Source: Methanocalculus sp. (GTDB lineage: Archaea > Halobacteriota > Methanomicrobia > Methanomicrobiales > Methanocorpusculaceae). From it: a DNA stretch of 11,643 nucleotides. Made by a program: the position numbers and the translations under genes. Position 1 is the first letter of the stretch, and every line of letters begins with the position of its first letter. Positions 1-11,643 of this stretch are shown piece by piece. Location: the NCBI RefSeq assembly GCF_029762515.1, contig NZ_JARVGN010000017.1:1-11643 (forward strand), written 5' to 3'. Below the pieces are notes generated by a model, which saw only the letters and a program-made list of their open reading frames with translations, searched no databases and was not told the origin of the DNA.

Positions 1-74
1 GGACCGCCTTCGATTACCACCTCTGCGATGGCGATCAGATCCTTGGCACAGGTGATATCTTCCTCTCTAAGCAT
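1..74 (-). CDS. Possible 5' end of a gene running leftwards out of the window (start codon ATG at 72-74; N-terminus MLREEDITCAKDLIAIAEVVIEGG...)
   Basis: Reverse complement of 72-74 is ATG. It is preceded on the minus strand by AGGTG about 10 nt upstream (revcomp of 85-89). The frame stays open to position 1. Only 24 codons are visible, so identity is unknown. Confidence 0.25.
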   Translation of the reverse strand, partial: MLREEDITCAKDLIAIAEVVIEGG

Positions 75-98
75 GGGTATCAGGCACCTTCAAATTGG

Positions 99-128
99 AA
101 GGAAAAAGAATACAGAAAAAAGAAAAGG
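99..128 (-). terminator. Oligo-T tract (minus-strand sense CCTTTTCTTTTTTCTGTATTCTTTTTCC) just downstream of the SPFH gene stop; candidate archaeal-type intrinsic terminator
   Basis: On the minus strand the stop codon TAA lies at 147-149. T-rich runs follow within 20-50 nt. Archaeal terminators are typically oligo-T tracts. Not verified. Confidence 0.3.
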
Positions 129-146
129 ACTGCATGAGAAACAACC

Positions 147-2006
147 TTACCTCAATTTCTCCCCGCATCCCTTACAAATTTGGTCTGAACTGTCGTTTTT
201 GGTTTTACATACAGGGCAGATCAGACTCTCATCCGGTTGCACTGGGTTGATTATCACCGGCTGTCCCATGCCTCCGCCTCCGGCAACAACCGTTGAGCCC
301 TGTGCTTGATGGGCGCTGCTACGCGCCGTTGCTGTACTGCCCATCGCACCAAGAGCTTTATTCATTACATCGGCCAGCCGATCTGCATTTTCCCCAAATG
401 TTTTCTGCATCATATCCATGTATTTCTGCTGGTCTTCCAGTCGGGCATCGAATAGTTCCTTCATCTTGTCAGAACCAAATTTCGCTTTCAATGCTTCTGC
501 CGCTGTAACTGGATCCTTAGCATTGAGCGCGAGAATCTGTTCAGGAGAAAGGGCGTTAGCACGTCTCATTATCTCGATATTGGTAAGATATTCTGCAGCT
601 TTAGGATCACCAGTGATTACAATTTTTGATTCTGTCGAAGAATTGTCAATATTTTTAAGTCTCTTGCCTTCATTCTCGGTGGCATGATCTTGGTCCTTAT
701 GTTCGAGTTCCTGCTCTCCGGCCTTTTTTTGAAGAATTGCCTCAATTAATTTCTTTTTAGCCTCGATAAGAGCTATCAAATCTTTTCGATCACGATCGCG
801 CTCATGATCCGCAATTTTATCCTTATGATCCAAATCATGACCTAGTTCCGTATCTTCAATATCGTGACGGTGCTTCTGCTGAGCTTTCTCAAGGATAATT
901 GCGCGGATAAATTCCTGATCTTCCCTTTTATGAATAAGTTCAGTCTTTAACTCCTCGATATCATTCTCTCGAATAATGCCCGCCTTTGCAAGCTCATGGA
1001 TAAAAGAATCAACTGATTCCTTATCGGAAAGTTTACTGATTTCATCATCAGACAGCAATTTCCGGATTTTTTGTTCCGTATCAAGGTCCAGTCCTGTCGC
1101 TGTAACTTTCTTCGTCCTTTCGATGCGCCCGTCGATGATATCTTGCCATTCAGATTCATCGTATCGGACAAACCTGAGACGTTCTAAGGAAAATCCATAA
1201 TTTTGCAGGATTGGAGCGACTCGTGTTTGAACCCCACCTTCAATCTCATCTTTCACTGAAAGATTTCCATAGAGATCATCCATTCTATACTCGCGTAATG
1301 TTGATTGGACGACGCTCTGAATATCATACGAAAGATCGGCCTGAAGATCGGTCAGAAGAATCTGACTCTTTCCTTTCAGAAGATTGTCAATAAATTTTTT
1401 TGAGTCGGCGTTTCTGAGGGTCAGCGTACCGCTGACCCCGACCGGGATCGAATCGGCAGTACGGATCTGTGTCTTATCAAAGGTGAAATCGAGGGTGACA
1501 ATTCCGTCGTCAACGAGAACGATGGTTGCGCGGTCATCGAGATTGATTGGCAGGTGGGCCTCAAGGAATGTGCCGATATCATAATAGCCGGGTCTGAGAT
1601 CGCCCTGATACGCACCGCCCTGGAACAGAAGAGCGCGTGTTCCTTCAGCCACGGTGACCGTCTTTTTGAAAATGCCACGAAGGTCTTCAACTTCAAATCT
1701 GCTGGCAAAATCTCCCGGTTTTCTCCTCCACTGGCGGGTGCGAGTGAAATCCTCTTCATTTGATCCTACAAATTTGCCCAGTCGAGATGGTCTCACACTT
1801 GTTCCGCAACCTGGGCAGTATTTTGCATCCGGCGGAATGGAAGAACCACAATTATTGCATACATAGGCTTCGGATTTTGTTCCGCATTGCGAGCAGAATT
1901 TTGCATCCCGTTCCAGCGTTTTTCCACATTTCAAGCATTGTTTGCTTCCAGAAGCATTTTCTGCAATCTTTTCTATTTTCCCCTTGAATAGTTCCATAAT
2001 AATCAC
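147..2006 (-). CDS. SPFH/band-7 (flotillin/stomatin-like) domain protein with N-terminal double zinc ribbon, long charged coiled-coil region and C-terminal zinc ribbon; no obvious TM helix. Likely true start is ATG at 1995-1997 (MELFKGK...); the 2006 start is a GTG.
   Basis: This is the 619-aa ORF from the track. The N-terminus carries the CxxC spacing CLKCG...CSQCG...CNNCG...CPGCG, a double zinc ribbon. The central segment SIPVGVSGTLTLRNADSKKFIDNLL...LREYRMDDLYGN...LQNYGFSLERLRFVRYD matches the SPFH/band-7 pattern (strand-rich core, LR...Ly.nR motif, GI/F-x-L-x-x-v-x-I). A ~250-aa E/K/D/H-rich helical region follows, typical of flotillins. The C-terminus ends CPVCK...CKGCG, a zinc ribbon. 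Confidence 0.75.
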   Translation of the reverse strand: MIIMELFKGKIEKIAENASGSKQCLKCGKTLERDAKFCSQCGTKSEAYVCNNCGSSIPPDAKYCPGCGTSVRPSRLGKFVGSNEEDFTRTRQWRRKPGDFASRFEVEDLRGIFKKTVTVAEGTRALLFQGGAYQGDLRPGYYDIGTFLEAHLPINLDDRATIVLVDDGIVTLDFTFDKTQIRTADSIPVGVSGTLTLRNADSKKFIDNLLKGKSQILLTDLQADLSYDIQSVVQSTLREYRMDDLYGNLSVKDEIEGGVQTRVAPILQNYGFSLERLRFVRYDESEWQDIIDGRIERTKKVTATGLDLDTEQKIRKLLSDDEISKLSDKESVDSFIHELAKAGIIRENDIEELKTELIHKREDQEFIRAIILEKAQQKHRHDIEDTELGHDLDHKDKIADHERDRDRKDLIALIEAKKKLIEAILQKKAGEQELEHKDQDHATENEGKRLKNIDNSSTESKIVITGDPKAAEYLTNIEIMRRANALSPEQILALNAKDPVTAAEALKAKFGSDKMKELFDARLEDQQKYMDMMQKTFGENADRLADVMNKALGAMGSTATARSSAHQAQGSTVVAGGGGMGQPVIINPVQPDESLICPVCKTKNDSSDQICKGCGEKLR

Positions 2007-2130
2007 CAGTAATACACTCGTTGTTCGGACCCCGTACAGTGCAATTTTTCAGGTTAAGACGGGCATATTTGACGATCGGTATGTGCGCGTATCAAATTCA
2101 GCGATTCAGGCTGGATTTTGCATACAAGTA

Positions 2131-2175
2131 AAATGGTTGCATTGTCCCGATCGGTCGTGCTTAATACAACCATTT
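2131..2175. promoter_or_regulatory. Inverted repeat / stem-loop: 9-bp arms AAATGGTTG (2131-2139) and CAACCATTT (2167-2175) with a 27-nt loop containing the palindrome CCGATCGG (2147-2154); followed on the + strand by a T-rich tract
   Basis: The complementarity is directly visible. It lies in the 246-nt gap between the stop of the ESCRT-III/PspA-like gene (2253) and the start of the SPFH gene (1997/2006). It could be an operator or attenuator for the SPFH gene, or a terminator-like structure. Confidence 0.35.
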
Positions 2176-2252
2176 ATATTCCTTTTCTCTCATTTGAGTG
2201 ATTGCCGTTCACTAATTATAAATCATGCTCATTTTATTCGGATGTGGTTTCC

Positions 2253-2855
2253 TCATTTTTTCAATCCTGAAGATAATGTGCGAAAGAAATCATTTCCCAC
2301 AGAATCAAATGTGAGTCGATTCATTTGCATCTCGGTAATGAGTGATTCGATGTATGATTCCTCAACAGAAGCGGTTACTTCCTGAAAGATATGTTCAGCG
2401 GTGATCTCTGAAAGTTCGTCCATTAGAGCCCTGTGTTCTTCTTTGCTGTAACTGGCTTTTGCCAGCCACCATTCGAGTGTATCTGGGTCTATAGCCTGCA
2501 TCTTCTTCCAGACACCCGAGCGTTTCAGCGTTGTTTGCTGCTCCTTTATGGCGATGATATTCGAAAGCACGCGAAGATCCTTCTCAAGATGCATGCATGT
2601 AGTGGCTTTAAGCTGCCAGGACTCGGAAATTGCTCTGATACGTTTTGCATAGAAGGATGTCCCCGCTTCTTCGCATCCGGATGATGCTGCCGAGAAGAGT
2701 GTTCTAATCTGCTGTTCCAGATCTGTTTTTTCGTTCTGCAGTTTCTGGATCTGATACTTCATCTGAGATTCTGCCTTTCTGAGCTCCCCAAGATTCATCG
2801 AATCAAAAGGAGTTGTGTGGAATAGCCTTGAGAAGATGCTCATCGATTGATGCAC
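2253..2855 (-). CDS. ESCRT-III/PspA (Snf7 / IM30) superfamily coiled-coil protein, paralog B; probable true start ATG at 2841-2843 (MSIFSRLF...), 196 aa
   Basis: This is the 200-aa ORF. The N-terminal MSIFSRLF resembles the N-terminal amphipathic motif of ESCRT-III (CHMP4 MSVFGKLF) and PspA (MGIFSRF). The long helical hairpin has heptad character. The segment LSNIIAIKEQQTTLKRSGVWKKMQAIDPDTLE resembles the Snf7 helix-3/4 region (LK..k.m.idkvd.l.d). It aligns along its whole length with the adjacent 2871-3473 ORF. AGGTGG lies about 10 nt upstream of ATG 2843 on the minus strand. Confidence 0.6.
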   Translation of the reverse strand: MHQSMSIFSRLFHTTPFDSMNLGELRKAESQMKYQIQKLQNEKTDLEQQIRTLFSAASSGCEEAGTSFYAKRIRAISESWQLKATTCMHLEKDLRVLSNIIAIKEQQTTLKRSGVWKKMQAIDPDTLEWWLAKASYSKEEHRALMDELSEITAEHIFQEVTASVEESYIESLITEMQMNRLTFDSVGNDFFRTLSSGLKK

Positions 2856-2870
2856 CCACCTGATACTCTC

Positions 2871-3473
2871 TCAATCTTCTAGCTCCGCGATGGCTTTCTC
2901 AAGATCCTTTTCTATTGAAAAGAGACCGCCTGCTTCTTCCAGCTCCAGAGTTCCTGTCTCAACGCTGTTCCAGATCTCAAACATCTGCTTTTCAGCTTCA
3001 TCGAGATCATTGTCTGAGTCCGCAATATCCAGAGCGAAGATCTGGTTCAGATCGTCAACAACGTTCTCGAATCCCTTGCCTGCGAGATTTACCTGGATGA
3101 GCGAACTTTCAAAGGCATCGGGTGATATACTCTGAATCTTATCCCAAATTTGTGTTTTCTGGAGATCACGCTGGTACTTCTTGATTACCACAAGGTTTGA
3201 GATAAACATGTACTGCTTGTGCAGTGCCATAAAGTTACGAACCTTTAGTTTGGCACTCATGTCCATCTGCTTGAGCTCTTGTGCAAGCATCTTCTTTTTA
3301 ATGAGGTCGGCACCAACACCTTCTCCGAATTTTTGTTTCTTCTCTCGTTCAATCCTGTCGATTTCCTTACGAAGGCGATTTATACGACTTTTGAGCTTGA
3401 GTTCTTCTTCCTGCAGTTCAGAAACCTTGAGTTTCTCAATCCGGTTACGGCGGAAATGTTCTGTGATTTTCAT
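2871..3473 (-). CDS. ESCRT-III/PspA superfamily coiled-coil protein, paralog A (200 aa), first gene of the leftward operon
   Basis: It has the same length and co-linear similarity to paralog B (ELQEEELKLKSRINRLRKEIDRIEREKKQKF vs ELRKAESQMKYQIQKLQNEKTDLEQQIRTLF; ISNLVVIKKYQRDLQKTQIWDKIQSISPDAFE vs LSNIIAIKEQQTTLKRSGVWKKMQAIDPDTLE). The C-terminal tail is acidic. Only 27 nt separate its stop from the start of paralog B. GGTGA lies 6 nt upstream of the ATG, and a TATA box sits about 35 nt upstream. Confidence 0.55.
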   Translation of the reverse strand: MKITEHFRRNRIEKLKVSELQEEELKLKSRINRLRKEIDRIEREKKQKFGEGVGADLIKKKMLAQELKQMDMSAKLKVRNFMALHKQYMFISNLVVIKKYQRDLQKTQIWDKIQSISPDAFESSLIQVNLAGKGFENVVDDLNQIFALDIADSDNDLDEAEKQMFEIWNSVETGTLELEEAGGLFSIEKDLEKAIAELED

Positions 3474-3506
3474 CTTGTGTCACCGATCGCGAATTGTCGT
3501 CAATCC

Positions 3507-3515
3507 TATATAAAA
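3507..3515. promoter_or_regulatory. TATA-box-like element TATATAAAA (minus-strand sense TTTTATATA preceded by purine-rich GGAGGAAA, a BRE-like element) in the divergent intergenic region; probably the promoter of the leftward ESCRT-III/PspA-like operon
   Basis: It is positioned about 35 nt upstream of the ATG at 3473 on the minus strand, with a purine-rich tract immediately upstream, as in archaeal BRE/TATA promoters. A second AT-rich candidate (ATAATATTAAT, 3534-3544) faces the rightward operon. Confidence 0.4.
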
Positions 3516-3517
3516 TT

Positions 3518-3534
3518 TCCTCCTTTACGGAGGA
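3518..3534. promoter_or_regulatory. Perfect dyad TCCTCC-N5-GGAGGA between the two divergent promoters; candidate operator
   Basis: TCCTCC (3518-3523) and GGAGGA (3529-3534) are exact reverse complements separated by TTTAC. It is located between the TATA candidates of the two divergent operons. Confidence 0.35.
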
Positions 3535-3564
3535 TAATATTAATGGCCAATATGTAGTGCTCCG

Positions 3565-4131
3565 ATGTGGAGGTATTTTTTTATAGGAATGGTGCGTACA
3601 GATCCAATAAGAATGGATTATCTCCTGGTTGTGGATTATCACTCTGACGCGGAACGTAAACGGATTGATGCCACCATCGAGCGGTGGAAATCAAAGAAAA
3701 ACGTGCGCAAAGAGAAAGGCGTATTGATCCGGGCAAGTGATGACGATATCGAAGCCTTTCTGCAAGATCTTTATGCGCGACTGGATAGGGGGAGCGAGAG
3801 TGTTCGGATGTACAAAGCAGAGGCATGTAGTCCGGACGTTGGAGAGGTATCACGAACACTTCGATATGAGGCAGAGATTGATCAAGAGACTGTCCGACAA
3901 TTCTTACGATATATTCTCAATAAACTCAATGGTAGTTATGAAGGAGTTCGGGATGGCGTAGAATCATACACAGTCTATACCCGGAAAGGTCAGGCGTCAA
4001 CAGGTTTCGTCTGGGCGGATCATCCAGGGAAAACTAAATTGACAATTTTCGTGAGCGGTTTTGGTGATGTGGTCTCTTTTGTTGCAGAGCGGATTGACGA
4101 AGAGCTGAAAGCATTTCTGGGAGGGGTATAA
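3565..4131 (+). CDS. Hypothetical protein (188 aa from ATG 3565; alternative starts ATG 3589 or 3613), first gene of the rightward operon; no recognisable domain
   Basis: This is a long ORF with no stops. Its stop TAA (4129-4131) overlaps by 1 nt the ATG of the next gene (TAATG), which supports a translated, co-transcribed gene. There is no convincing Shine-Dalgarno sequence for any start, so it may be leaderless. I could not match the sequence to a known family. Confidence 0.55.
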   Translation: MWRYFFIGMVRTDPIRMDYLLVVDYHSDAERKRIDATIERWKSKKNVRKEKGVLIRASDDDIEAFLQDLYARLDRGSESVRMYKAEACSPDVGEVSRTLRYEAEIDQETVRQFLRYILNKLNGSYEGVRDGVESYTVYTRKGQASTGFVWADHPGKTKLTIFVSGFGDVVSFVAERIDEELKAFLGGV

Positions 4132-6044
4132 TGGCTGGTCAAAAAAAGACTGATTCACATTCAAAATATGTTCATCATTATCGACTTGGAACAACGCAAT
4201 ATAAAGCATCGCGATTTCTTGAGGCAATTAAGTCATTTGATAATGCATTGAAATATAAACCACAATCATACTGGGCGTGGAATGAAAAAGGGAATGCGCT
4301 CAGAAAACTGGGTCGGCTTGAAGAGGCGTTGAAATGCTATAACCATGCTACTTCCCTTGACAGATCAAAATCATATCCATTCGCGTATATAGGTAGGGGA
4401 GACGTCCATCGTGAACAAAAAACGTATAAAAAAGCAATTTCTAACTATAATCAAGCCTTAAAAATCAAAAGGCATCCATTTGCCTTAAATGGTAAAGCAC
4501 AGTGCTTTTATGAAACAGGTAACAAAAATGAAGCATTTCAGCTAGCGGAAGAGGCAATACTTTTGCGTCCTTATTTTGAACATCCGTATATTTTAACCGG
4601 AGATATTCTATTTGACCGTGGTTTGTACAAAGATGCAAAGGAAAGGTATGAAAGAGCTATCGGATTAATCGATACAGGTTCAAGTGAACTTCGTGCAGCT
4701 TTACATAAAAAAATACAGGATTGCAGTATGAAGATTGATGCCGAATCTCCGGGGATTAAGGACGAGCCTGATATTGATCCGGAAGATATTGGTGCTCTTC
4801 TCTCTCAACTTCGCTCGGGAAATGACAGTGGGCGTGCAGAAGCATCGTATAATCTTGATATCTGTGCGAAAAAGAACCTGGCAGGCCAGATCATCAGACA
4901 CCGGCCCTTTCCTCTCTTTGAGTCTGCTCTGGGTGATCCGGTTCCGGAGGTGCGGAAACAAGTTCAATGGATTCTTGGTAATCTTGCACTGCACGGGTTT
5001 TCCTACGAAGTCACTGAATCTGGAGTATTGGGCCTTCTTGCAGCAAATCTTGGCGATACCAATGAAGAAGTGCGTAGTGCAGCAGCATGGACACTTGCCG
5101 TCATAGCTGAGGTCGGACAGGGTATTCGAGTGGCAGAAACGGGTATGATCCACTCCTGTATCCAGCTGTTAGATGACAGTAATGCTGGAGTCCGTTCTTC
5201 AGCGGCCCTTGCTCTGGATAAAGTTGCCTTTTATGCAAGCCCGGAGCCAATTGTTCATGCCGATGGGGTTGTGAACCTTGCTGGGCATATCCTGGATACG
5301 GATACCGGAGTACGTGCGAGTACCCTATGGGCGCTCTGGTCTATCGCCTTCCGAGGATATGTCGACAGTATATGCGATGCTCCGGACCTGATCACCGATC
5401 TTAAGCAGTCAGCCCAGAGCAGAAACCTTGAAATTCGGAAAGCTGCGATTTCTCTGATTGGGGAACTTTCAACCGTTTCTGATAAATCGTTCTTGGAAAA
5501 TAAAGATCTTGAGCGAATTCTCATTTCCGGGATTGGTTCCCGAAGTAACCGTGTTCGGGGTGCCTCGATATGGGCTGTTGGGAGATGGGCAGATGCAGGA
5601 ATTGCTACCTCCTTGATTCGGAGCGGGGTTAAGGAAGCAATGAGAAACTGCCGGGATGACCACACAAATGTTCACGTTTTTTACCACAGTGAACTCCGCT
5701 GGAAGCAACGCTCTATTGGCGGTATCGCGGACGATGTCCTGAAAAAGCTGGATGAACCCACGGCCGCTCCAGATGATCTTGCTCCCTGCGAAGCTGATTA
5801 TCGTACCGCATATTTTGTCGTAAATAGTTATGTAGAACATTTGGCCCAAAGCGAACTTCATGAGGCTCGCAAAAAAGTCGTTCATCTGGAACAATTTGTA
5901 TGTGGTCCTACTCTTGAGGTAGTCCGGTATCAAAGGGATCACCTGGATCTCTATATCCAACAAGAAATTGATGAAATTCCTGAAGAGTTCGTCAATGAAG
6001 CAGAGTTATTAAAAGAGGAAATCCTCCGCAGAGCGCTGGCATAG
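4131..6044 (+). CDS. TPR-repeat + HEAT-repeat (PBS-lyase-type) scaffold protein, 637 aa
   Basis: The N-terminal ~200 aa carries TPR-like 34-residue repeats (AIKSFDNALKYKPQSYWAWNEKGNALRKLGRLEEALKCYNHATSLD ... AISNYNQALKIKRH ...). The middle carries at least 7 HEAT_PBS-like repeats with the signature D.d..VR..A..aLg.i (DPVPEVRKQVQWILGNLA, DTNEEVRSAAAWTLAVIA, DSNAGVRSSAALALDKVA, DTDTGVRASTLWALWSIA, SRNLEIRKAAISLIGEL, SRSNRVRGASIWAVGRWA). A strong RBS, GGAGGGG, lies 6-11 nt upstream. Confidence 0.8.
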   Translation: MAGQKKTDSHSKYVHHYRLGTTQYKASRFLEAIKSFDNALKYKPQSYWAWNEKGNALRKLGRLEEALKCYNHATSLDRSKSYPFAYIGRGDVHREQKTYKKAISNYNQALKIKRHPFALNGKAQCFYETGNKNEAFQLAEEAILLRPYFEHPYILTGDILFDRGLYKDAKERYERAIGLIDTGSSELRAALHKKIQDCSMKIDAESPGIKDEPDIDPEDIGALLSQLRSGNDSGRAEASYNLDICAKKNLAGQIIRHRPFPLFESALGDPVPEVRKQVQWILGNLALHGFSYEVTESGVLGLLAANLGDTNEEVRSAAAWTLAVIAEVGQGIRVAETGMIHSCIQLLDDSNAGVRSSAALALDKVAFYASPEPIVHADGVVNLAGHILDTDTGVRASTLWALWSIAFRGYVDSICDAPDLITDLKQSAQSRNLEIRKAAISLIGELSTVSDKSFLENKDLERILISGIGSRSNRVRGASIWAVGRWADAGIATSLIRSGVKEAMRNCRDDHTNVHVFYHSELRWKQRSIGGIADDVLKKLDEPTAAPDDLAPCEADYRTAYFVVNSYVEHLAQSELHEARKKVVHLEQFVCGPTLEVVRYQRDHLDLYIQQEIDEIPEEFVNEAELLKEEILRRALA

Positions 6045-6052
6045 GGGATAAT

Positions 6053-7234
6053 ATGAACGTGGATCTCAGTGGGTTTCTGACGAAAGAACTGAAGAAAACA
6101 ATACGGGAATATCGAGCAGCATGTTCTGAAAATGATTCCCGCATAGTCCGGGAGAAAGCCCATATCTGTGCGATTCTGAGTCAAAAATTAGCTGAGCAGT
6201 CGCCATCATTTCGGAATAAATACCTCTCAGATGCAAAAAAATGGGAATTTATTGCATCCGGAAAAAATCCGGTGTCCTTGGATATCAGTAATAGAGATCC
6301 CTCCCGACGACCAGAAACTCAGGATTCTGCGAATGAATCGGATCTGGATTTTGATGCAACGTCGTTGATATCATCATCATCGGTCAGGTGGGATGATATC
6401 GGTGGTCTGGATGAGGTTAAACGTCTGGTAAAGGAAACGGTAGTCATCGCGGGTCTTCGGAAACCTGCTGCAATCCAGCCATGGAAGGGAATTCTTCTCT
6501 TTGGCCCTCCAGGGACGGGAAAGACGATGATTGCAGCAGCGGCTGCAGGGAGTCTGCATGCGACTTTCTTTGATGTGAAAGCCGATCGTATTCTCTCAAA
6601 ATATTTTGGGGAGTCATCAAAGATCATTGCCTCTCTCTACGCATCAGCAAGGAAGCGGGCACCTTCGATTGTGTTTATTGATGAGTTTGATGCGCTCGGT
6701 TCAGCAAGAAGTGAAGGTACCGGCGAAGCAACACGAAAGCTGCTCTCTTCTCTTCTCACCGAACTTGATGGACTGCAAGACAAGAACGCTGATCGGCTTC
6801 TTCTCACTATGGCAGCCACCAATACTCCCTGGGATCTTGATCCGGCAGTTCTGTCTCGTTTTCCCCGGCGAATTTTTGTGACGCTTCCGGATGAGGCATC
6901 CTGTGCAGCAATCATCAGACTTCATCTGCGCGGTCTTGAAGTCGCTGATCTTGAAATTTCAGATCTTGGGAGGAGGTGTGTGGAACAGGGGTATTCAGGT
7001 AGAGATATTCAGAACCTCTGCCAGCAAGCGATCTGGGCCATGATCCACGAGGAAAATCCACAACTGGAGAAGCTCGCAGATCTCACGTTTGATGAGTTGA
7101 GTGAACAAGTGCTGAAGACAAGAGGTCTGTTTGCCGGTGATTTTACGGAGGCATTTGAGATTGTGCGTTCGCCAGTGCGCGAGGCCGACCTGGACCGGTA
7201 TAGGCAATGGAGTGAGGAGTATGGGGGGATGTGA
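6053..7234 (+). CDS. Vps4/CdvC-like (katanin/spastin 'meiotic' clade) AAA+ ATPase with helical MIT-like N-terminal domain, 393 aa
   Basis: The Walker A motif is GPPGTGKT, preceded by PWKGILLF, the PW-x-G-ILL signature of this clade. The Walker B motif is IVFIDEFD. The second region of homology, TNTPWDLDPAVLSRFPRRIFVTLPD, aligns closely with Vps4 [25 protein letters not shown]. The C-terminus YRQWSEEYGG resembles the Vps4, katanin and spastin C-terminal W..E(F/Y)G. The N-terminal ~70 aa is an all-helical region, consistent with an MIT three-helix bundle. The RBS AGGGG lies 5 nt upstream. The gene is spaced 8 nt after the previous gene. Confidence 0.9.
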   Translation: MNVDLSGFLTKELKKTIREYRAACSENDSRIVREKAHICAILSQKLAEQSPSFRNKYLSDAKKWEFIASGKNPVSLDISNRDPSRRPETQDSANESDLDFDATSLISSSSVRWDDIGGLDEVKRLVKETVVIAGLRKPAAIQPWKGILLFGPPGTGKTMIAAAAAGSLHATFFDVKADRILSKYFGESSKIIASLYASARKRAPSIVFIDEFDALGSARSEGTGEATRKLLSSLLTELDGLQDKNADRLLLTMAATNTPWDLDPAVLSRFPRRIFVTLPDEASCAAIIRLHLRGLEVADLEISDLGRRCVEQGYSGRDIQNLCQQAIWAMIHEENPQLEKLADLTFDELSEQVLKTRGLFAGDFTEAFEIVRSPVREADLDRYRQWSEEYGGM

Positions 7235-7341
7235 CCTGAACCAATATCATGGACTTACATGTACTTTCCGTCAGTTTGTTACAGCAAAAAAATGTGTTAA
7301 ACATCTCCGCTTAATCATAAATTTCAGGAGTAGAGCGGTCG

Positions 7342-7515
7342 GTGAAGGTGCGGGGCGCCAGATCTGCCTCGTGGGTGGTGGGCAACCTGCTCTGGGTGGC
7401 CTTCGGCGTGGCGGAGCGGAACGTGTACGTGACTGCATTATTTGCCTTTTACTGGGTGACAGCGGTGGTGGGATTGCGGAATAATTGGGGTGGATACGAA
7501 GCAAATATTGAATGA
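7342..7515 (+). CDS. Small hydrophobic ORF (57 aa from GTG 7342: VKVRGARSASWVVGNLLWVAFGVAERNVYVTALFAFYWVTAVVGLRNNWGGYEANIE), putative 2-TM hairpin mini-protein or a remnant of a membrane-protein gene, inside a ~62% GC island
   Basis: It is absent from the ORF track because it is shorter than 60 aa. The frame opens after TAA 7318-7320 and closes at TGA 7513-7515. There are only GTG starts (7342, 7348), with AGGAG 11 nt upstream of 7342. It has two hydrophobic stretches separated by ERN. Its GC content is well above the flanks. The overlapping track ORFs 7131-7484(+) and 7271-7504(-) translate to low-complexity R/P/G-rich junk. Confidence 0.3.
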   Translation: MKVRGARSASWVVGNLLWVAFGVAERNVYVTALFAFYWVTAVVGLRNNWGGYEANIE

Positions 7516-7546
7516 ATAATTTGGAGGAGAAAGGTATTGTGAGAAT

Positions 7547-8251
7547 TTAAATTTTTGAATTCATCCATTTCCGTACAATTGTCTTTACAAGATTTTGTGC
7601 ATCATGAAGTTCCATCGGGTTTTCAGGTTTCTGAAATTTTTTTCGAGCATGTCGGGCCTCTTTTCCAATTGCGTCGTAACTCTGGGCTGTTTGTTTGAAT
7701 CGCCCAATCTCGCTATAAAATTCTCCATTTTTCTTCACAGGTGCATAACCGTCTTCCTGGACTAATTCAATAATATTATAGAGCACACCAAATGAGTTGA
7801 AATCGTGGTCTATGAGTTCATTAACTCGCTGGACTCTCTCATCTGTTTGTGCGAGCCGAATTAATTTGATAATTTTGTTATCTGGTGGAGATTCAACAGT
7901 AGTTCCATCTTTTTTTGTAACGGTCACTTGGACTCGTGCGCGTATATGAATTGAAGCGGTTAAAGGTTCAAGAAAAATTGTCTTTTTACCGTCTTCATCA
8001 ATGAATTGAATTCCTCCTCGTTTTATCAAATCCGACGAATTGAAAAGTAGTTTTCTTGCTGCATTGATATTGATCAACAATTCATCGGCTTTTGCCTTGA
8101 CAGATTTATGATCGGAAGAATTCTCCAATGATGTAAATTCAAGTAGATATTTTTCACCTTCATTGAGAACACGAAAGTCAGTTGACTGGAGAATTTCACT
8201 CAATTCTGCTAGATCATTCGCATCTCCGTGAAGATCAACCTGCCACTTCAT
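7547..8251 (-). CDS. Hypothetical protein (234 aa), last gene of the Type I R-M operon (24 nt after the hsdS stop), AT-rich; function unknown
   Basis: This is a clean ORF with AGGT 8 nt upstream of the ATG at 8251, co-directional with hsdS and closely spaced to it. I recognise no known motifs in the protein, which is a mixed alpha/beta, Lys-rich sequence. Confidence 0.65.
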   Translation of the reverse strand: MKWQVDLHGDANDLAELSEILQSTDFRVLNEGEKYLLEFTSLENSSDHKSVKAKADELLININAARKLLFNSSDLIKRGGIQFIDEDGKKTIFLEPLTASIHIRARVQVTVTKKDGTTVESPPDNKIIKLIRLAQTDERVQRVNELIDHDFNSFGVLYNIIELVQEDGYAPVKKNGEFYSEIGRFKQTAQSYDAIGKEARHARKKFQKPENPMELHDAQNLVKTIVRKWMNSKI

Positions 8252-8275
8252 TTCTGTTTACCTTTGTTCTTTTCT

Positions 8276-9799
8276 TCATTTTTTTGCCTTTATTCGCTCA
8301 AGCAGCACACTTGCTGGTTCATACTCCCGTTCCTCCCGCCGGGCCAGTTCTGCCTCGGTGGACACCAGCTGTCCGGAAAATGCCTGGGCGAGGATGGACT
8401 GCCGGAGTGTTTCGGTGCGTTCTTTAGCAGCGGTGATGCGGGCCTCGATCTGATCGGCGAGGGCGAATAGAGCGTCGGCCCGGTGGACAATTTCATCCTG
8501 TTCGGAAAGCGGAGGGAGGGGGATTGGTAAAGATTTGATATTACTCAAATTTAACCTGGCTCGACCCACACCGTGAATCGATTCTACCATTCTCTTCCTT
8601 GTTGATTCAGTATTGATCGCGAAGATGACGTATTTATTATTAGCAATTTCTTGATGCGGATTGAGTCTAATGCAATCAGCTTTAACAATTGCGGGTCCGA
8701 AATCATCTGGGATTTGACAAGCCCGAGGGATTGGGTCACCTAGTGTTCCAATAACAAGATCCTTTGGAAAAACTTGATGTTTTTTTAATTTTGTGAAATG
8801 ATCTGTTGAGATATGCGATTTCACATCGATGAAATTACCATCGCCTAAGTTTTGTAATCGTATGACTCTTGGACCGGAATCAGTATAATGCTCAGTTTTC
8901 AGATTCGATCCAAAAGGACCGTCTGTTATTGAATTTGCTTCGATACCAGATACCTGATCTATACTAGCCCAAGTCCATTTATCTGAAACAATTGGTAAAT
9001 CACTGATTTCTATTCCTTTTGGTTCACGATATTTTTCTTTCCACTTCGAATTTTTCGGAGTTTTTCCTTTATCTTGGAAAGTCTGTATTTGTTCTCTTTC
9101 CCAAGCCATTCGTTTTTGATTTAAGATATTTCCCACAGCCTCTTTTGCATCTGTAATGTCCGGATTCTCCGACCGCCAGTCCTCCGTCAGCCGCCCTTCG
9201 CACGCAGCGGCGAGCACCGCCTGCCTGAACTGCTGCACGATGCCCGGCACCCTGTCAAGGCGGGCCTGTGCGGCGTCCAGCCGGGCGAACAACGCCTCTA
9301 TGGCAGCTACGATGCGGTGCTGTTCGGCGAGAGGGGGGAGGGGGATTTTCAACTCTTTTAATTTTGTTGCATTACAATTTGGCTGAGCAATTCCTGAAAT
9401 ATTCTGAGAAATTTGGGTCCAATATTCGGATGTGCTAAAAAATAGACTCATGAATTTTTGATTGACATTTCTGTTTGGTCTAAGCCGAATGAGATACGAG
9501 GCAAAAATGCTATCTGGGCAGGAAGATATCAGATAGCTCTTGCCTGTAGTTGCACCAGTTCGTGCAAAAACAATGTCTCCAGACTCCAATTTATATTTGG
9601 AAATTTGTTCTTCCTTGATGCTGCAAAACGGAACATCATTCCAATCAACAAAATCATTCTGGATATCTGTAATTCGCAAAAAATGAGGTCCAACTTTATT
9701 TTTATCAGCTGAAGCCGTATATCCGTATTTTATTTCATCGGAGATATCGTTAATAGTTGATTGAATCCAACCTTCTGGCAACTCACTATTCTGCGGCAT
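8276..9799 (-). CDS. hsdS: Type I restriction-modification specificity subunit HsdS, copy 1 (507 aa), with two TRDs
   Basis: The N-terminus has MPQNSELPEGW, the canonical LPEGW HsdS start. The central conserved region is LPPLAEQHRIVAAIEALFARLDAAQARLDRV... The C-terminal conserved region is LPPLSEQDEIVHRADALFALADQIEARI...LLERIKAKK. The two conserved regions show the internal repeat structure typical of HsdS, flanking two variable TRDs of about 150 and 210 aa. Confidence 0.9.
   Translation of the reverse strand: MPQNSELPEGWIQSTINDISDEIKYGYTASADKNKVGPHFLRITDIQNDFVDWNDVPFCSIKEEQISKYKLESGDIVFARTGATTGKSYLISSCPDSIFASYLIRLRPNRNVNQKFMSLFFSTSEYWTQISQNISGIAQPNCNATKLKELKIPLPPLAEQHRIVAAIEALFARLDAAQARLDRVPGIVQQFRQAVLAAACEGRLTEDWRSENPDITDAKEAVGNILNQKRMAWEREQIQTFQDKGKTPKNSKWKEKYREPKGIEISDLPIVSDKWTWASIDQVSGIEANSITDGPFGSNLKTEHYTDSGPRVIRLQNLGDGNFIDVKSHISTDHFTKLKKHQVFPKDLVIGTLGDPIPRACQIPDDFGPAIVKADCIRLNPHQEIANNKYVIFAINTESTRKRMVESIHGVGRARLNLSNIKSLPIPLPPLSEQDEIVHRADALFALADQIEARITAAKERTETLRQSILAQAFSGQLVSTEAELARREEREYEPASVLLERIKAKK
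8279..8527. repeat. HsdS C-terminal conserved block, copy 1; direct repeat of 9854-10102 (~85-90% nt identity by eye, identical runs up to 37 nt)
   Basis: The identical runs include GAGGATGGACTGCCGGAGTGTTTCGGTGCGTTCTTT and AGAGCGTCGGCCCGGTGGACAATTTCATCCTGTTCGG. The block is GC-rich (~60%). Confidence 0.85.
9164..9349. repeat. HsdS central conserved block, copy 1; direct repeat of 10670-10855 (~90% nt identity by eye)
   Basis: Shared runs include ATGCGGTGCTGTTCGGCGAGAGGGGGGAG, GCGTCCAGCCGGGCGAACA and GATGCCCGGCACCCT. The block is GC-rich. Confidence 0.85.
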
Positions 9800-9850
9800 T
9801 TTTTTATCTCTTGTTTTTCGATCACTATGGGTAATCTGTTAAAATTTTTC

Positions 9851-11245
9851 TTAAATAGAAGATTTAATACGCTCCAGCAGCACTAGTGCTGGTTCATATT
9901 CTCGCCTCTCCCGCTGGGCCAGCTCCGCCTCGGTAGGCACCAGCTGCCCGGAAAATGCCTGGGTGAGGATGGACTGCCGGAGTGTTTCGGTGCGTTCTTT
10001 GGCGGTGGCGACGCGGGCCTCGATCTGGTCTGCGAGGGCGAAGAGAGCGTCGGCCCGGTGGACAATTTCATCCTGTTCGGGGATAGGTGGAAGGGGGATT
10101 GCAATCGACTTTAAAATAGTACCATTTATTCCTGGACGAGTTTGTCCTCGAATTTGATTTTGAATTTGTTGCTGAACAGGAATTGCTCCTCTCAGTGTTT
10201 GAAATAAATAATGGGGAGATACTAAATCTTGATTCGAAGTAATGCGATAGACATGCTTGGTGATAATTGCGGTCTCACAATTTTCGGGAAAGACGCAACA
10301 TCTGCCAATTGTTGCCATGACAGTGATTAACAAATCCAGGGGCCTTGCAGTGTATTTTCTTAATTCTTCATATTTTTCCGGACTTATTCGGTGTTCTTTT
10401 CCATAGGAAAAAAATCCGTTCTGTACATTATCAATTCCAATTGCTAAAATCCCAGAATCTTGAAACTCTGAATGAAGTAGATTGCTGCCAAAAGGGCCAC
10501 TTTGGATAGAACGAGCCTCTGGTGAGGCCAGTTGCTCTATGGTTGCCCAACACCATTTATCGGGTATATCATTTAAACCAGAAGTATCGGGCGTTTGGAT
10601 TTTCTTTTTTCCGGACGATAGCGTATTAAGTGTTATTTCAAGGTATTTTCGTGAATTCTCTATATTCGGATGTTCCGCCCGCCAATCCTCCGTCAGCCGC
10701 CCATCGCACGCAGCAGCGAGCACCGCCTGCCGGAACTGCTGTAGGATGCCCGGCACCCTATCAAGGCGGGCTTGTGCAGCGTCCAGCCGGGCGAACAGCG
10801 CCTCGATGGCGGTGACTATGCGGTGCTGTTCGGCGAGAGGGGGGAGTGGTATTGTCAAGGCTTTGACAATCTTTTGAGTTATAAGAGGTTGCGAGCTCCC
10901 AGTCTGGATACTAATCCAATCTACGGTCTGAAAATACCTGATTAACCAATTGAACAAATCTTGAGAATTGGGTTTTATAACTAAAGTGTTGTCAGTAACC
11001 CAGGCATTTTTTTTGTATACTGTAAGTGCTCCCGCTGCGCCAACTCTACCGAGGGTAATAATTGGTGATGTGAAATTATAGCTATCAGTATAGCCTATGG
11101 GCCCTCCTGCCCCTGCAACAGGGTAAGGCTGATCTGGAATTTTACTATAGTCTTCCCTTTTTATGTACTTTCCACTGGCAATTGAGATGAGAGAGCCCAA
11201 ATCTGAAGTCTCCCACCCCTCCGGCAGCTCACTCTTCTGTTGCAT
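9851..11245 (-). CDS. hsdS: Type I restriction-modification specificity subunit HsdS, copy 2 (464 aa), with two different TRDs
   Basis: It starts MQQKSELPEGWE. Its central block (LPPLAEQHRIVTAIEALFARLDAAQARLDRV...) and C-terminal block (...EQDEIVHRADALFALADQIEARV...LLERIKSSI) are near-identical to copy 1, whereas the two TRDs are unrelated to those of copy 1. The start overlaps the hsdM stop by 17 nt. Confidence 0.9.
   Translation of the reverse strand: MQQKSELPEGWETSDLGSLISIASGKYIKREDYSKIPDQPYPVAGAGGPIGYTDSYNFTSPIITLGRVGAAGALTVYKKNAWVTDNTLVIKPNSQDLFNWLIRYFQTVDWISIQTGSSQPLITQKIVKALTIPLPPLAEQHRIVTAIEALFARLDAAQARLDRVPGILQQFRQAVLAAACDGRLTEDWRAEHPNIENSRKYLEITLNTLSSGKKKIQTPDTSGLNDIPDKWCWATIEQLASPEARSIQSGPFGSNLLHSEFQDSGILAIGIDNVQNGFFSYGKEHRISPEKYEELRKYTARPLDLLITVMATIGRCCVFPENCETAIITKHVYRITSNQDLVSPHYLFQTLRGAIPVQQQIQNQIRGQTRPGINGTILKSIAIPLPPIPEQDEIVHRADALFALADQIEARVATAKERTETLRQSILTQAFSGQLVPTEAELAQRERREYEPALVLLERIKSSI
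9854..10102. repeat. HsdS C-terminal conserved block, copy 2 (direct repeat of 8279-8527)
   Basis: See the partner block 8279-8527. Both copies lie in the same orientation on the minus strand. Confidence 0.85.
10670..10855. repeat. HsdS central conserved block, copy 2 (direct repeat of 9164-9349)
   Basis: See the partner block 9164-9349. Confidence 0.85.
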
Positions 11246-11643
11246 ACCCGTTCCCCATCAGGTCGAGAATCGCCTGTAGTTCGTCGACCGCGGCCTCGAG
11301 TTCGTCGATGGCCTCGGCAGCGAGTTCCTCCGGAAGTGGCAGGTCCTCGCTGGACTCCAGCGACTCGTCGCGCAGCCACTTCAGCGAGTCGATCTTGTAG
11401 TCTCGCTCCTGCAGCTCGGTGATATGGAACGAGCGCCAGCGGTCGGCGGGGGAGTCAGCGGCATTGCGCTTTGCCCGGGCGTTGGGGTCGGGGCCGTAGC
11501 AGTGCTCGAACTCGGCGAAATGCTCCGGGGTGAGGGGGCGGTCCTTCTTGGTGATCTTGGGCACGTTGGTGCGGGCGTCGTAGACCCAGGTGTGCTCGGT
11601 GGGCGCGCCCCTGGTGAAGAAAATCACGTTCGTCTTGGTGCCC
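11229..11643 (-). CDS. hsdM: Type I R-M methyltransferase subunit HsdM, C-terminal ~138 codons (5' end lies beyond the window edge)
   Basis: The frame is open to the window end (...GTKTNVIFFTRGAPTEHTWVYDART...), and the track 'start' at 11627 is a GTG inside the gene. NVIFFTKG...VWFYD is the conserved C-terminal core of HsdM, followed by the acidic helical tail that contacts HsdS. GC is about 65%. Confidence 0.85.
   Translation of the reverse strand, partial: GTKTNVIFFTRGAPTEHTWVYDARTNVPKITKKDRPLTPEHFAEFEHCYGPDPNARAKRNAADSPADRWRSFHITELQERDYKIDSLKWLRDESLESSEDLPLPEELAAEAIDELEAAVDELQAILDLMGNGYATEE

Follow-up and report, generated by a model that had tools for sequence, protein, structure and literature searches.

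A tandem pair of full-length hsdS genes behind one hsdM in a Methanocalculus Type I locus, a candidate for two specificities from one system

Type I restriction-modification (R-M) systems work as M2S and R2M2S assemblies, in which the helices of the specificity subunit set the spacer length (PMC3874165). Loci with more than one gene for this subunit, hsdS, are well represented among them: REBASE holds 3292 Type I loci that carry two hsdS genes or more, only 827 of which have an invertase, and multi-hsdS systems have been noted in many archaea and bacteria (PMC7672463). Adjacent hsdS genes have likewise been reported in Mycoplasma (PMC7383803). Where phase variation of Type I loci has been characterised, the repeats involved are exact, and in most of the catalogued cases a recombinase is encoded close by (PMC7394358, PMC7672463, PMC6265443). 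The biochemistry of archaeal Type I systems is almost unexplored (PMC11033074). Here we describe a Type I locus with two hsdS genes in tandem, hsdS1 and hsdS2, in a DNA stretch of 11,643 nt from Methanocalculus sp. (contig NZ_JARVGN010000017.1, positions 1 to 11,643 of the forward strand; the whole stretch is called the window below). The contig belongs to a metagenome-assembled genome (MAG), and its end falls inside hsdM. The tandem multi-hsdS layout is already known, and the window locus is an example of it from an archaeal methanogen; it is less unusual than the initial annotation of this DNA implied, both in view of the REBASE counts and because shuffling of hsdS through direct repeats is known from the pneumococcal tvr locus (PMC6265443).

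On balance, we lean towards reading the locus as a stable multi-hsdS Type I operon in which two S subunits, S1 and S2, share one HsdM and one HsdR and give two specificities. Each S subunit would assemble with the single HsdM to form M2S and with HsdR to form R2M2S, and the outcome would be two simultaneous bipartite m6A/restriction specificities, probably of similar spacer length. The initial annotation had put recombinational reshuffling of the two genes first and had named two S subunits on one M2 core as the alternative. It is the alternative that fits better, given the purifying selection on both copies and the conserved order of hsdR, hsdM and two hsdS genes (R-M-S-S') described below; co-expression, joint assembly with one M/R pair and two distinct motifs are what we infer from the sequence.

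Two full-length hsdS genes with different target-recognition domains

The locus lies on the minus strand in the order hsdM 3' end, hsdS1, spacer, hsdS2, and orf234. The hsdM-proximal copy, hsdS1 (9851..11245, minus strand), encodes 464 aa and the distal copy, hsdS2 (8276..9799, minus strand), encodes 507 aa; both start with ATG and are in the same frame, and an A/T-rich spacer of 51 nt (9800..9850, minus strand) runs from the hsdS1 stop to the hsdS2 start. PF01420 (Methylase_S) matches two stretches of each S protein (E 1.6e-31 and 6.2e-33), more than 130 PADLOC Specificity_I models match each of them, and both resemble EcoKI HsdS, central conserved helix included (E 1e-49 for S2). The hsdS1 product is a 100% match to the NCBI entry 'restriction endonuclease subunit S [Methanocalculus sp.]', and the hsdS2 product is the NCBI protein P0112 of the same contig.

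Each polypeptide contains a pair of Methylase_S-type target-recognition domains (TRDs), as is proper to an HsdS, and two conserved helical regions in alternation with them (CR1 in the centre and CR2 at the C-terminus), the blocks of which span aa 128-196 and 376-464 in S1 and aa 148-216 and 419-507 in S2. On the minus strand of the window, the parts of hsdS1 are TRD1 (~10862-11212), CR1 (~10658-10861), TRD2 (~10112-10657), and CR2 (~9854-10111), and those of hsdS2 are TRD1 (~9356-9766), CR1 (~9152-9355), TRD2 (~8537-9151), and CR2 (~8279-8536). The open reading frames (ORFs) and the Methylase_S matches bear out the earlier description of two full-length hsdS genes with canonical starts, placed in direct orientation behind hsdM. 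With two full-length copies 51 nt apart and one hsdM upstream, the window carries a multi-hsdS (S+) locus.

The hsdM 3' end (11229..11643, minus strand) encodes a partial Type I methyltransferase C-terminus that is recognised by Pfam N6_Mtase and PADLOC MTase_I (E 1e-33), and its final 17 nt coincide with the beginning of hsdS1, the ATG of which is located inside hsdM. The partial HsdM is 77-80% identical to the HsdM C-termini from Methanosarcinales hsdR-hsdM-hsdS loci that share this 17-nt overlap. The contig break in the GC-rich hsdM may be owed to further hsdM genes of similar sequence, or to strain variation, within the sample; it has cut off hsdR together with the promoter of the operon. 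S1 and S2 align without indels in their conserved regions, and their helices are equal in length. Because both S proteins are intact and have alike HsdM-docking regions of equal length, S1 and S2 are both expected to join one HsdM.

The initial annotation had called the four TRDs unrelated. All of them do differ, and for the two TRD1s the term is right (BLASTP E 4.8); the TRD2s, however, are distant homologues with 36% identity over 143 aa (E 3e-26). As a rule of thumb, TRDs with a common target share >50% identity (PMC10030836), and the two TRD2s, at their lower identity, probably read different half-sites. In a search of 5.8 billion proteins, the 120 best hits include nearer relatives from elsewhere for all four TRDs (44-72% identity): S1 TRD1 is 72% identical to P0008 and S1 TRD2 is 71% identical to P0024, both nearer than hsdS2, and S2 TRD2 is 55% identical to P0038 from Methanoregula. 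P0038 (L105 7001-8374, Methanoregula sp., in an hsdR-hsdM-hsdS locus) is a lone HsdS that joins an S1-like TRD1 (65%) to this S2-like TRD2, which argues that TRD types assort independently among related hsdS genes. Prediction of recognition sequences from solved structures was tried and dropped, as S2 TRD1 matches both EcoKI TRDs about equally (scores of 83.6 and 87.1) and the half-site is too ambiguous.

The base composition of the locus is a mosaic. The GC content at third codon positions (GC3) is 0.57-0.86 in hsdM and the conserved regions of the hsdS genes, with 0.86 in hsdM and 0.70-0.73 in the central block of hsdS1, against 0.27-0.40 in the four TRDs and orf234 and 0.37-0.50 in the neighbouring genes. 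The same holds more widely: in 65 of the 65 hsdS genes from the fetched loci L001-L093, the GC3 of the conserved regions exceeds that of the TRDs, by a mean of +0.22 and whatever the GC content of the locus. Such a mosaic fits TRDs that would be horizontally exchanged as cassettes within a retained scaffold.

Divergence of the conserved blocks and the scope for recombination

The central conserved blocks of hsdS1 (10662..10864) and hsdS2 (9156..9358), both on the minus strand, form a direct repeat of 88% identity with a spacing of 1506 nt, and the C-terminal blocks (9864..10128 in hsdS1 and 8289..8553 in hsdS2, minus strand) form a second one of 83% identity with a spacing of 1575 nt; random 200-nt pairs across the two genes are 25.4% ± 3.5% identical. 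The initial annotation had described these blocks as near-identical, with limits at 9164-9349 and 10670-10855 and at 8279-8527 and 9854-10102, and had suggested a dot-plot of the hsdS region against itself to quantify the repeat identity. Measured at these limits, the identity confirms the description, with 88.7% for the first pair and 83.5% for the second. The claim of identical runs up to 37 nt is also correct: runs of 37 nt (8469-8505) and 36 nt (8390-8425) are located in the C-terminal block of hsdS2, and the central block contains a run of 29 nt (9312-9340 and 10818-10846). BLASTN gives one core of 173 nt with 90.8% identity and another of 211 nt with 88.6%.

This identity is that of old sequences. 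The synonymous divergence (dS) over the full blocks is 0.47 for the central and 0.52 for the C-terminal pair, and the ratios of nonsynonymous to synonymous divergence (dN/dS) are 0.15 and 0.25, respectively. In the core blocks, dN is 0.024 and dS 0.385 for the central pair and 0.073 and 0.44 for the C-terminal pair, with dN/dS of 0.06 and 0.17. Since neutral evolution of one copy would be expected to raise the pairwise dN/dS much higher, these values indicate purifying selection on both copies, and the conserved blocks are old paralogues that diverged long ago and have been kept by this selection. In CR1, the split between S1 and S2 (dS 0.39) is about as deep as that between S1 and L014 (dS 0.40), a separate single-hsdS metagenomic locus that comes from a different sample. 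A permutation test on runs of identical codons found them no longer than chance (P = 0.69 and 0.14); the deep dS together with this lack of clustering argues that there is no trace of recent gene conversion. To judge from this divergence, the hsdS pair has lasted long without collapsing.

The initial annotation had proposed that the direct repeats are a substrate for reshuffling. On this reading, recombination or gene conversion would use them at a biologically relevant rate, which would create chimeric S subunits or delete one copy and diversify specificity in the population. The geometry speaks for it: the repeats extend over 173-211 nt and are 89-91% identical, uninterrupted matches reach 29-37 nt, and both crossovers would be in frame, as the spacings of 1506 and 1575 nt are divisible by 3. 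A crossover between the CR1s would give a 487-aa chimera with the TRD1 of S1 and the TRD2 of S2, and one between the CR2s would remove hsdS2 and leave a 464-aa S1-like gene. Recombination in the central conserved region is, moreover, the classic route to new Type I specificities, with a precedent in the StySB x StySP hybrids, whose crossover lay in a near-identical stretch of 130 nt (PMC3874165); the independent assortment of TRD types seen in P0038 points in the same direction, and the very different base composition of conserved regions and TRDs fits the swapping of cassettes. However, the repeats are 10-17% diverged with a dS of 0.39-0.52, and their identical codons are unclustered. The known phase-variable loci use exact short repeats, such as the inverted repeats of 15 and 30 bp in E. 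faecalis (PMC7672463), and one REBASE survey took only 100% repeat matches as candidates (PMC7394358). Furthermore, a crossover between direct repeats is a deletion and irreversible, so that a reversible switch is impossible, and the pair has outlasted a divergence as deep as that from the single-hsdS locus L014.

Both hsdS genes are on one strand, and no inverted repeats of at least 20 nt were found in the region 7500-11643. No recombinase or integrase domain was found in the ten main ORFs of the window, a scope limited by the contig end in hsdM; in this, the window differs from the ivr and tvr loci, and the distinction that the initial annotation drew from invertase-driven shufflons stands. 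Its claim that the locus works as a reshuffling substrate finds no support in the divergence, and we consider such use of the repeats unlikely. Nothing indicates selection for exchange at the window locus, or exchange that is ongoing or programmed; it is plausible that recombination between the repeats is a rare, mostly deletional side effect of evolution and not an operating mechanism.

The same repeats bear on the question of whether the tandem could be an artefact, in which a metagenome assembler joined the hsdS alleles of co-existing strains. The contig comes from a MAG and ends in hsdM, and metagenomic hsdS loci are prone to misassembly (PMC7672463). However, a misjoin mediated by the repeats would make a hybrid gene and not a full stop codon, a unique 51-nt spacer, and a full start, and the longest common exact run of 37 nt is below the usual final k-mers of assemblers. 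In addition, no hsdM-like sequence precedes hsdS2, as it would in a second allele, and the R-M-S-S' layout recurs on two independent long contigs (L022 and L031). We regard an assembly artefact as highly improbable.

Relatives, origin and expression of the second hsdS

The relatives of the window locus are hsdR-hsdM-hsdS operons in Methanosarcinales, Methanoregula, and various bacteria, the HsdR of which carries an EcoEI_R_C domain. The closest of them have one hsdS behind hsdM, and the locus of Methanosarcina sp. Ant1 has an identical 17-nt hsdM/hsdS overlap. Near-identical contigs and sister loci were sought by looking up the exact proteins, by scanning contigs of genomes and metagenomes, and by searching for homologues of S1 and of the HsdM C-terminus; nothing closer than 55% identity came up for S1, or than 78-80% for HsdM. 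In their conserved regions, S1 and S2 are closer to each other (93% and 86% aa identity) than to any third protein among the 120 best hits of the search in 5.8 billion proteins, where identity does not exceed 83% and 75%.

Two full-length hsdS genes in direct tandem are present in 2 of the 42 fetched loci with enough flank, L022 (5839-12600) and L031 (5827-12582). These are orthologous hsdR-hsdM-hsdS-hsdS' operons with 71% identity in HsdR and 90% in HsdM, in which every gene junction is a 4-nt overlap and the conserved blocks of the two copies within each operon are 86-87% and 77-79% identical. All four TRDs differ between L022 and L031. This orthology accompanied by a change of the TRDs argues that a two-S operon can persist over substantial divergence while its TRDs turn over.

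The junctions of the window locus suggest how the second copy arose. In three Methanoregulaceae loci (L100-L102), the order is an hsdM remnant, hsdS, and a homologue of orf234, and in L097 and L098, a leftover of ~35-55 nt of an hsdS 3' end precedes the orf234 homologue; this order points to an ancestral right junction that consists of the hsdS C-terminal tail followed by orf234. Of the two window copies, hsdS1 keeps the ancestral left junction, the 17-nt hsdM overlap, and hsdS2 keeps the right one, which is the pattern expected from tandem duplication. The extra hsdS most likely arose in this way: duplication of one hsdS unit would have made the second copy, and the TRDs would have been replaced afterwards. 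The duplication appears to be independent of that in L022 and L031, because the closest relatives of the window hsdS genes are single-copy.

Several points weigh against an operon with two working specificities. hsdS2 is not translationally coupled to hsdS1, from which the 51-nt spacer separates it, and an anti-Shine-Dalgarno duplex search for a ribosome-binding site near its ATG gave no convincing match; being uncoupled and without a clear ribosome-binding site, hsdS2 could be poorly expressed. The contig stops in hsdM and does not carry the hsdR that relatives have in front of it (hsdR-hsdM-hsdS), which makes the restriction activity of the system a prediction. Neither the 3' end of hsdM nor the sequence that follows hsdS2 shows significant similarity to the spacer; the duplication junction is without recognisable homology on either side, and capture of a second allele may be the origin instead. 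Finally, one survey excluded metagenome-derived hsdS loci over the risk of misassembly (PMC7672463), a caution that extends to a MAG contig. A sigma-70 promoter scan for hsdS2 was dropped, as it is not applicable to archaea.

The points on expression would suit a system with a single working specificity, in which one of the genes (hsdS2 would be the likelier) is silent or in decay, a spare left over from duplication or allele capture. Besides the want of a clear ribosome-binding site, hsdS2 is without the coupling that hsdS1 has with hsdM and that both S genes have in L022 and L031, and in B. licheniformis BlihIA, which has two hsdS genes, one motif was detected, though the second gene there encodes a half-size S (PMC12429846). 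Nevertheless, the 507 codons of hsdS2 form a full-length open frame in which the TRDs and the conserved regions are all intact, and the dN/dS of the conserved blocks is low. Moreover, orf234 lies behind hsdS2 on the same strand and directly behind hsdS in relatives, which argues that transcription runs through hsdS2. We doubt that one copy is silent, and a stable operon with two S subunits on one HsdM/HsdR is the reading we prefer.

If both S subunits are active, the archaeon gains two restriction/methylation specificities per M/R pair, a cheap broadening of its defence. The locus would then also be a simple natural case for studying two S subunits that compete for one methyltransferase core, a competition said still to need a model (PMC12429846). 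It could serve as an archaeal test case, and brings neither a surprise nor a new switching mechanism. It illustrates the evolution of Type I specificity, in which GC-rich scaffolds stay and AT-rich TRD cassettes turn over.

Neighbouring genes and comparison with described systems

The gene orf234 (7547..8251, minus strand) starts 24 nt 3' of hsdS2 and is probably the final gene of the operon. It has no match in Pfam, NCBIfam, PADLOC, or PHROG, but a profile search retrieved 2019 representatives of what is a widespread uncharacterised family, with invariant Arg-His residues, R200/H201, in a helical C-terminal domain and weak matches to HEPN-like folds; the AlphaFold2 (AF2) model of orf234 has a predicted local distance difference test score (pLDDT) of 92.8. 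In a word-index search, all three clusters of orf234 homologues (3/3) are placed behind hsdS or a remnant of its 3' end, and the gene order in these loci links the family to the hsdS 3' end in Methanomicrobiales. Homologues on plasmids (Halobacterium pHSAL2 and a P. putida plasmid) show no hsdS linkage. A more far-reaching reading, in which recombinase-independent gene conversion of TRDs between the tandem S genes and orf234 as a new R-M accessory together make a distinct Methanomicrobiales Type I variant with heterogeneous specificities in archaeal populations, seems to us very unlikely.

In L100 (5170-6540), and also in L101 and L102, only the final 52 codons of hsdM remain next to a Phage_integrase gene, and they are followed by an intact hsdS and the orf234 homologue; hsdR and the remaining part of hsdM were not found in the fetched 16.7-kb locus of L100. 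The idea that hsdS2 and orf234 form a mobile orphan cassette, raised by the adjoining integrase and the absence of a called hsdM in L100-L102, was rejected because these 52 codons sit directly upstream of hsdS. In these three loci, insertion of a mobile element into hsdM seems to have disrupted the Type I system.

On the plus strand of the window (3565-7234), orf188 is co-oriented with the genes for a TPR/HEAT-repeat protein of 637 aa and an AAA ATPase of 393 aa. A Vps4_C domain is present in the ATPase, which also matches PADLOC IetA strongly (E 2e-36), and no IetS-like protease adjoins it; the gene trio could be a defence module. On the minus strand (147-3473), an SPFH/Band-7 protein of 619 aa that also carries double zinc ribbons is encoded downstream of two adjacent paralogous 200-aa proteins, which are coiled-coil-like and 26% identical to each other (E 1e-16), with no family assignment. 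With such genes, the remainder of the contig has the look of a defence or variable island.

Among the described systems with several hsdS genes, the inverting loci (SpnD39III/ivr, Mycoplasma pulmonis, and Bacteroides fragilis; PMC7394358, PMC7672463) likewise combine common blocks with different TRDs. They are marked by an inverted orientation, by repeats that match exactly, by partial copies that are silent, and in most cases by an invertase next to the locus. None of these four features is present in the window, where the repeats are direct and 83-91% instead of 100% identical, neither copy is partial, and no recombinase was found. The pneumococcal tvr/SpnIV locus (PMC6265443) is nearer in one respect, as its hsdS TRDs are shuffled through direct repeats by excision and reintegration. 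In the window, too, two pairs of direct repeats flank TRD segments, but they are diverged coding regions and not dedicated sites. The tvr locus, furthermore, forms circular intermediates and has the recombinase TvrR, toxin-antitoxin-like regulators, and partial hsdS fragments; the window locus is without these three parts and has between its hsdS genes only the 51-nt spacer, with no recombinase or regulators.

O'Sullivan et al. reportedly described in 2000 the shuffling of hsdS domains on L. lactis plasmids (cited in PMC7383803). The cross of StySB with StySP, which gave StySQ and StySJ, follows the very mechanism that the initial annotation had in mind, a crossover in a near-identical block of ~130-200 nt that yields a hybrid specificity (PMC3874165). 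In both cases, however, the alleles were in different strains or plasmids and the events were selected experimentally, whereas the partners in the window are in tandem and the usual product would be a deletion.

The window locus is most like the REBASE multi-hsdS loci that have no invertase (PMC7672463), in which several hsdS genes accompany one hsdM, no recombinase is identifiable, and the specificities are presumed to be additive or alternative. It is set apart from them by its occurrence in Methanocalculus and by two full-length copies in direct tandem followed by orf234. L022 and L031, in which all junctions overlap by 4 nt and an orf234 homologue is absent, have no counterpart to the spacer between the two S genes of the window. 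Within one broad family, the relatives of which have an HsdR of the EcoEI_R_C type, they nonetheless share with the window locus the same conserved-region motifs, full-length hsdS genes in direct tandem, and four different TRDs.

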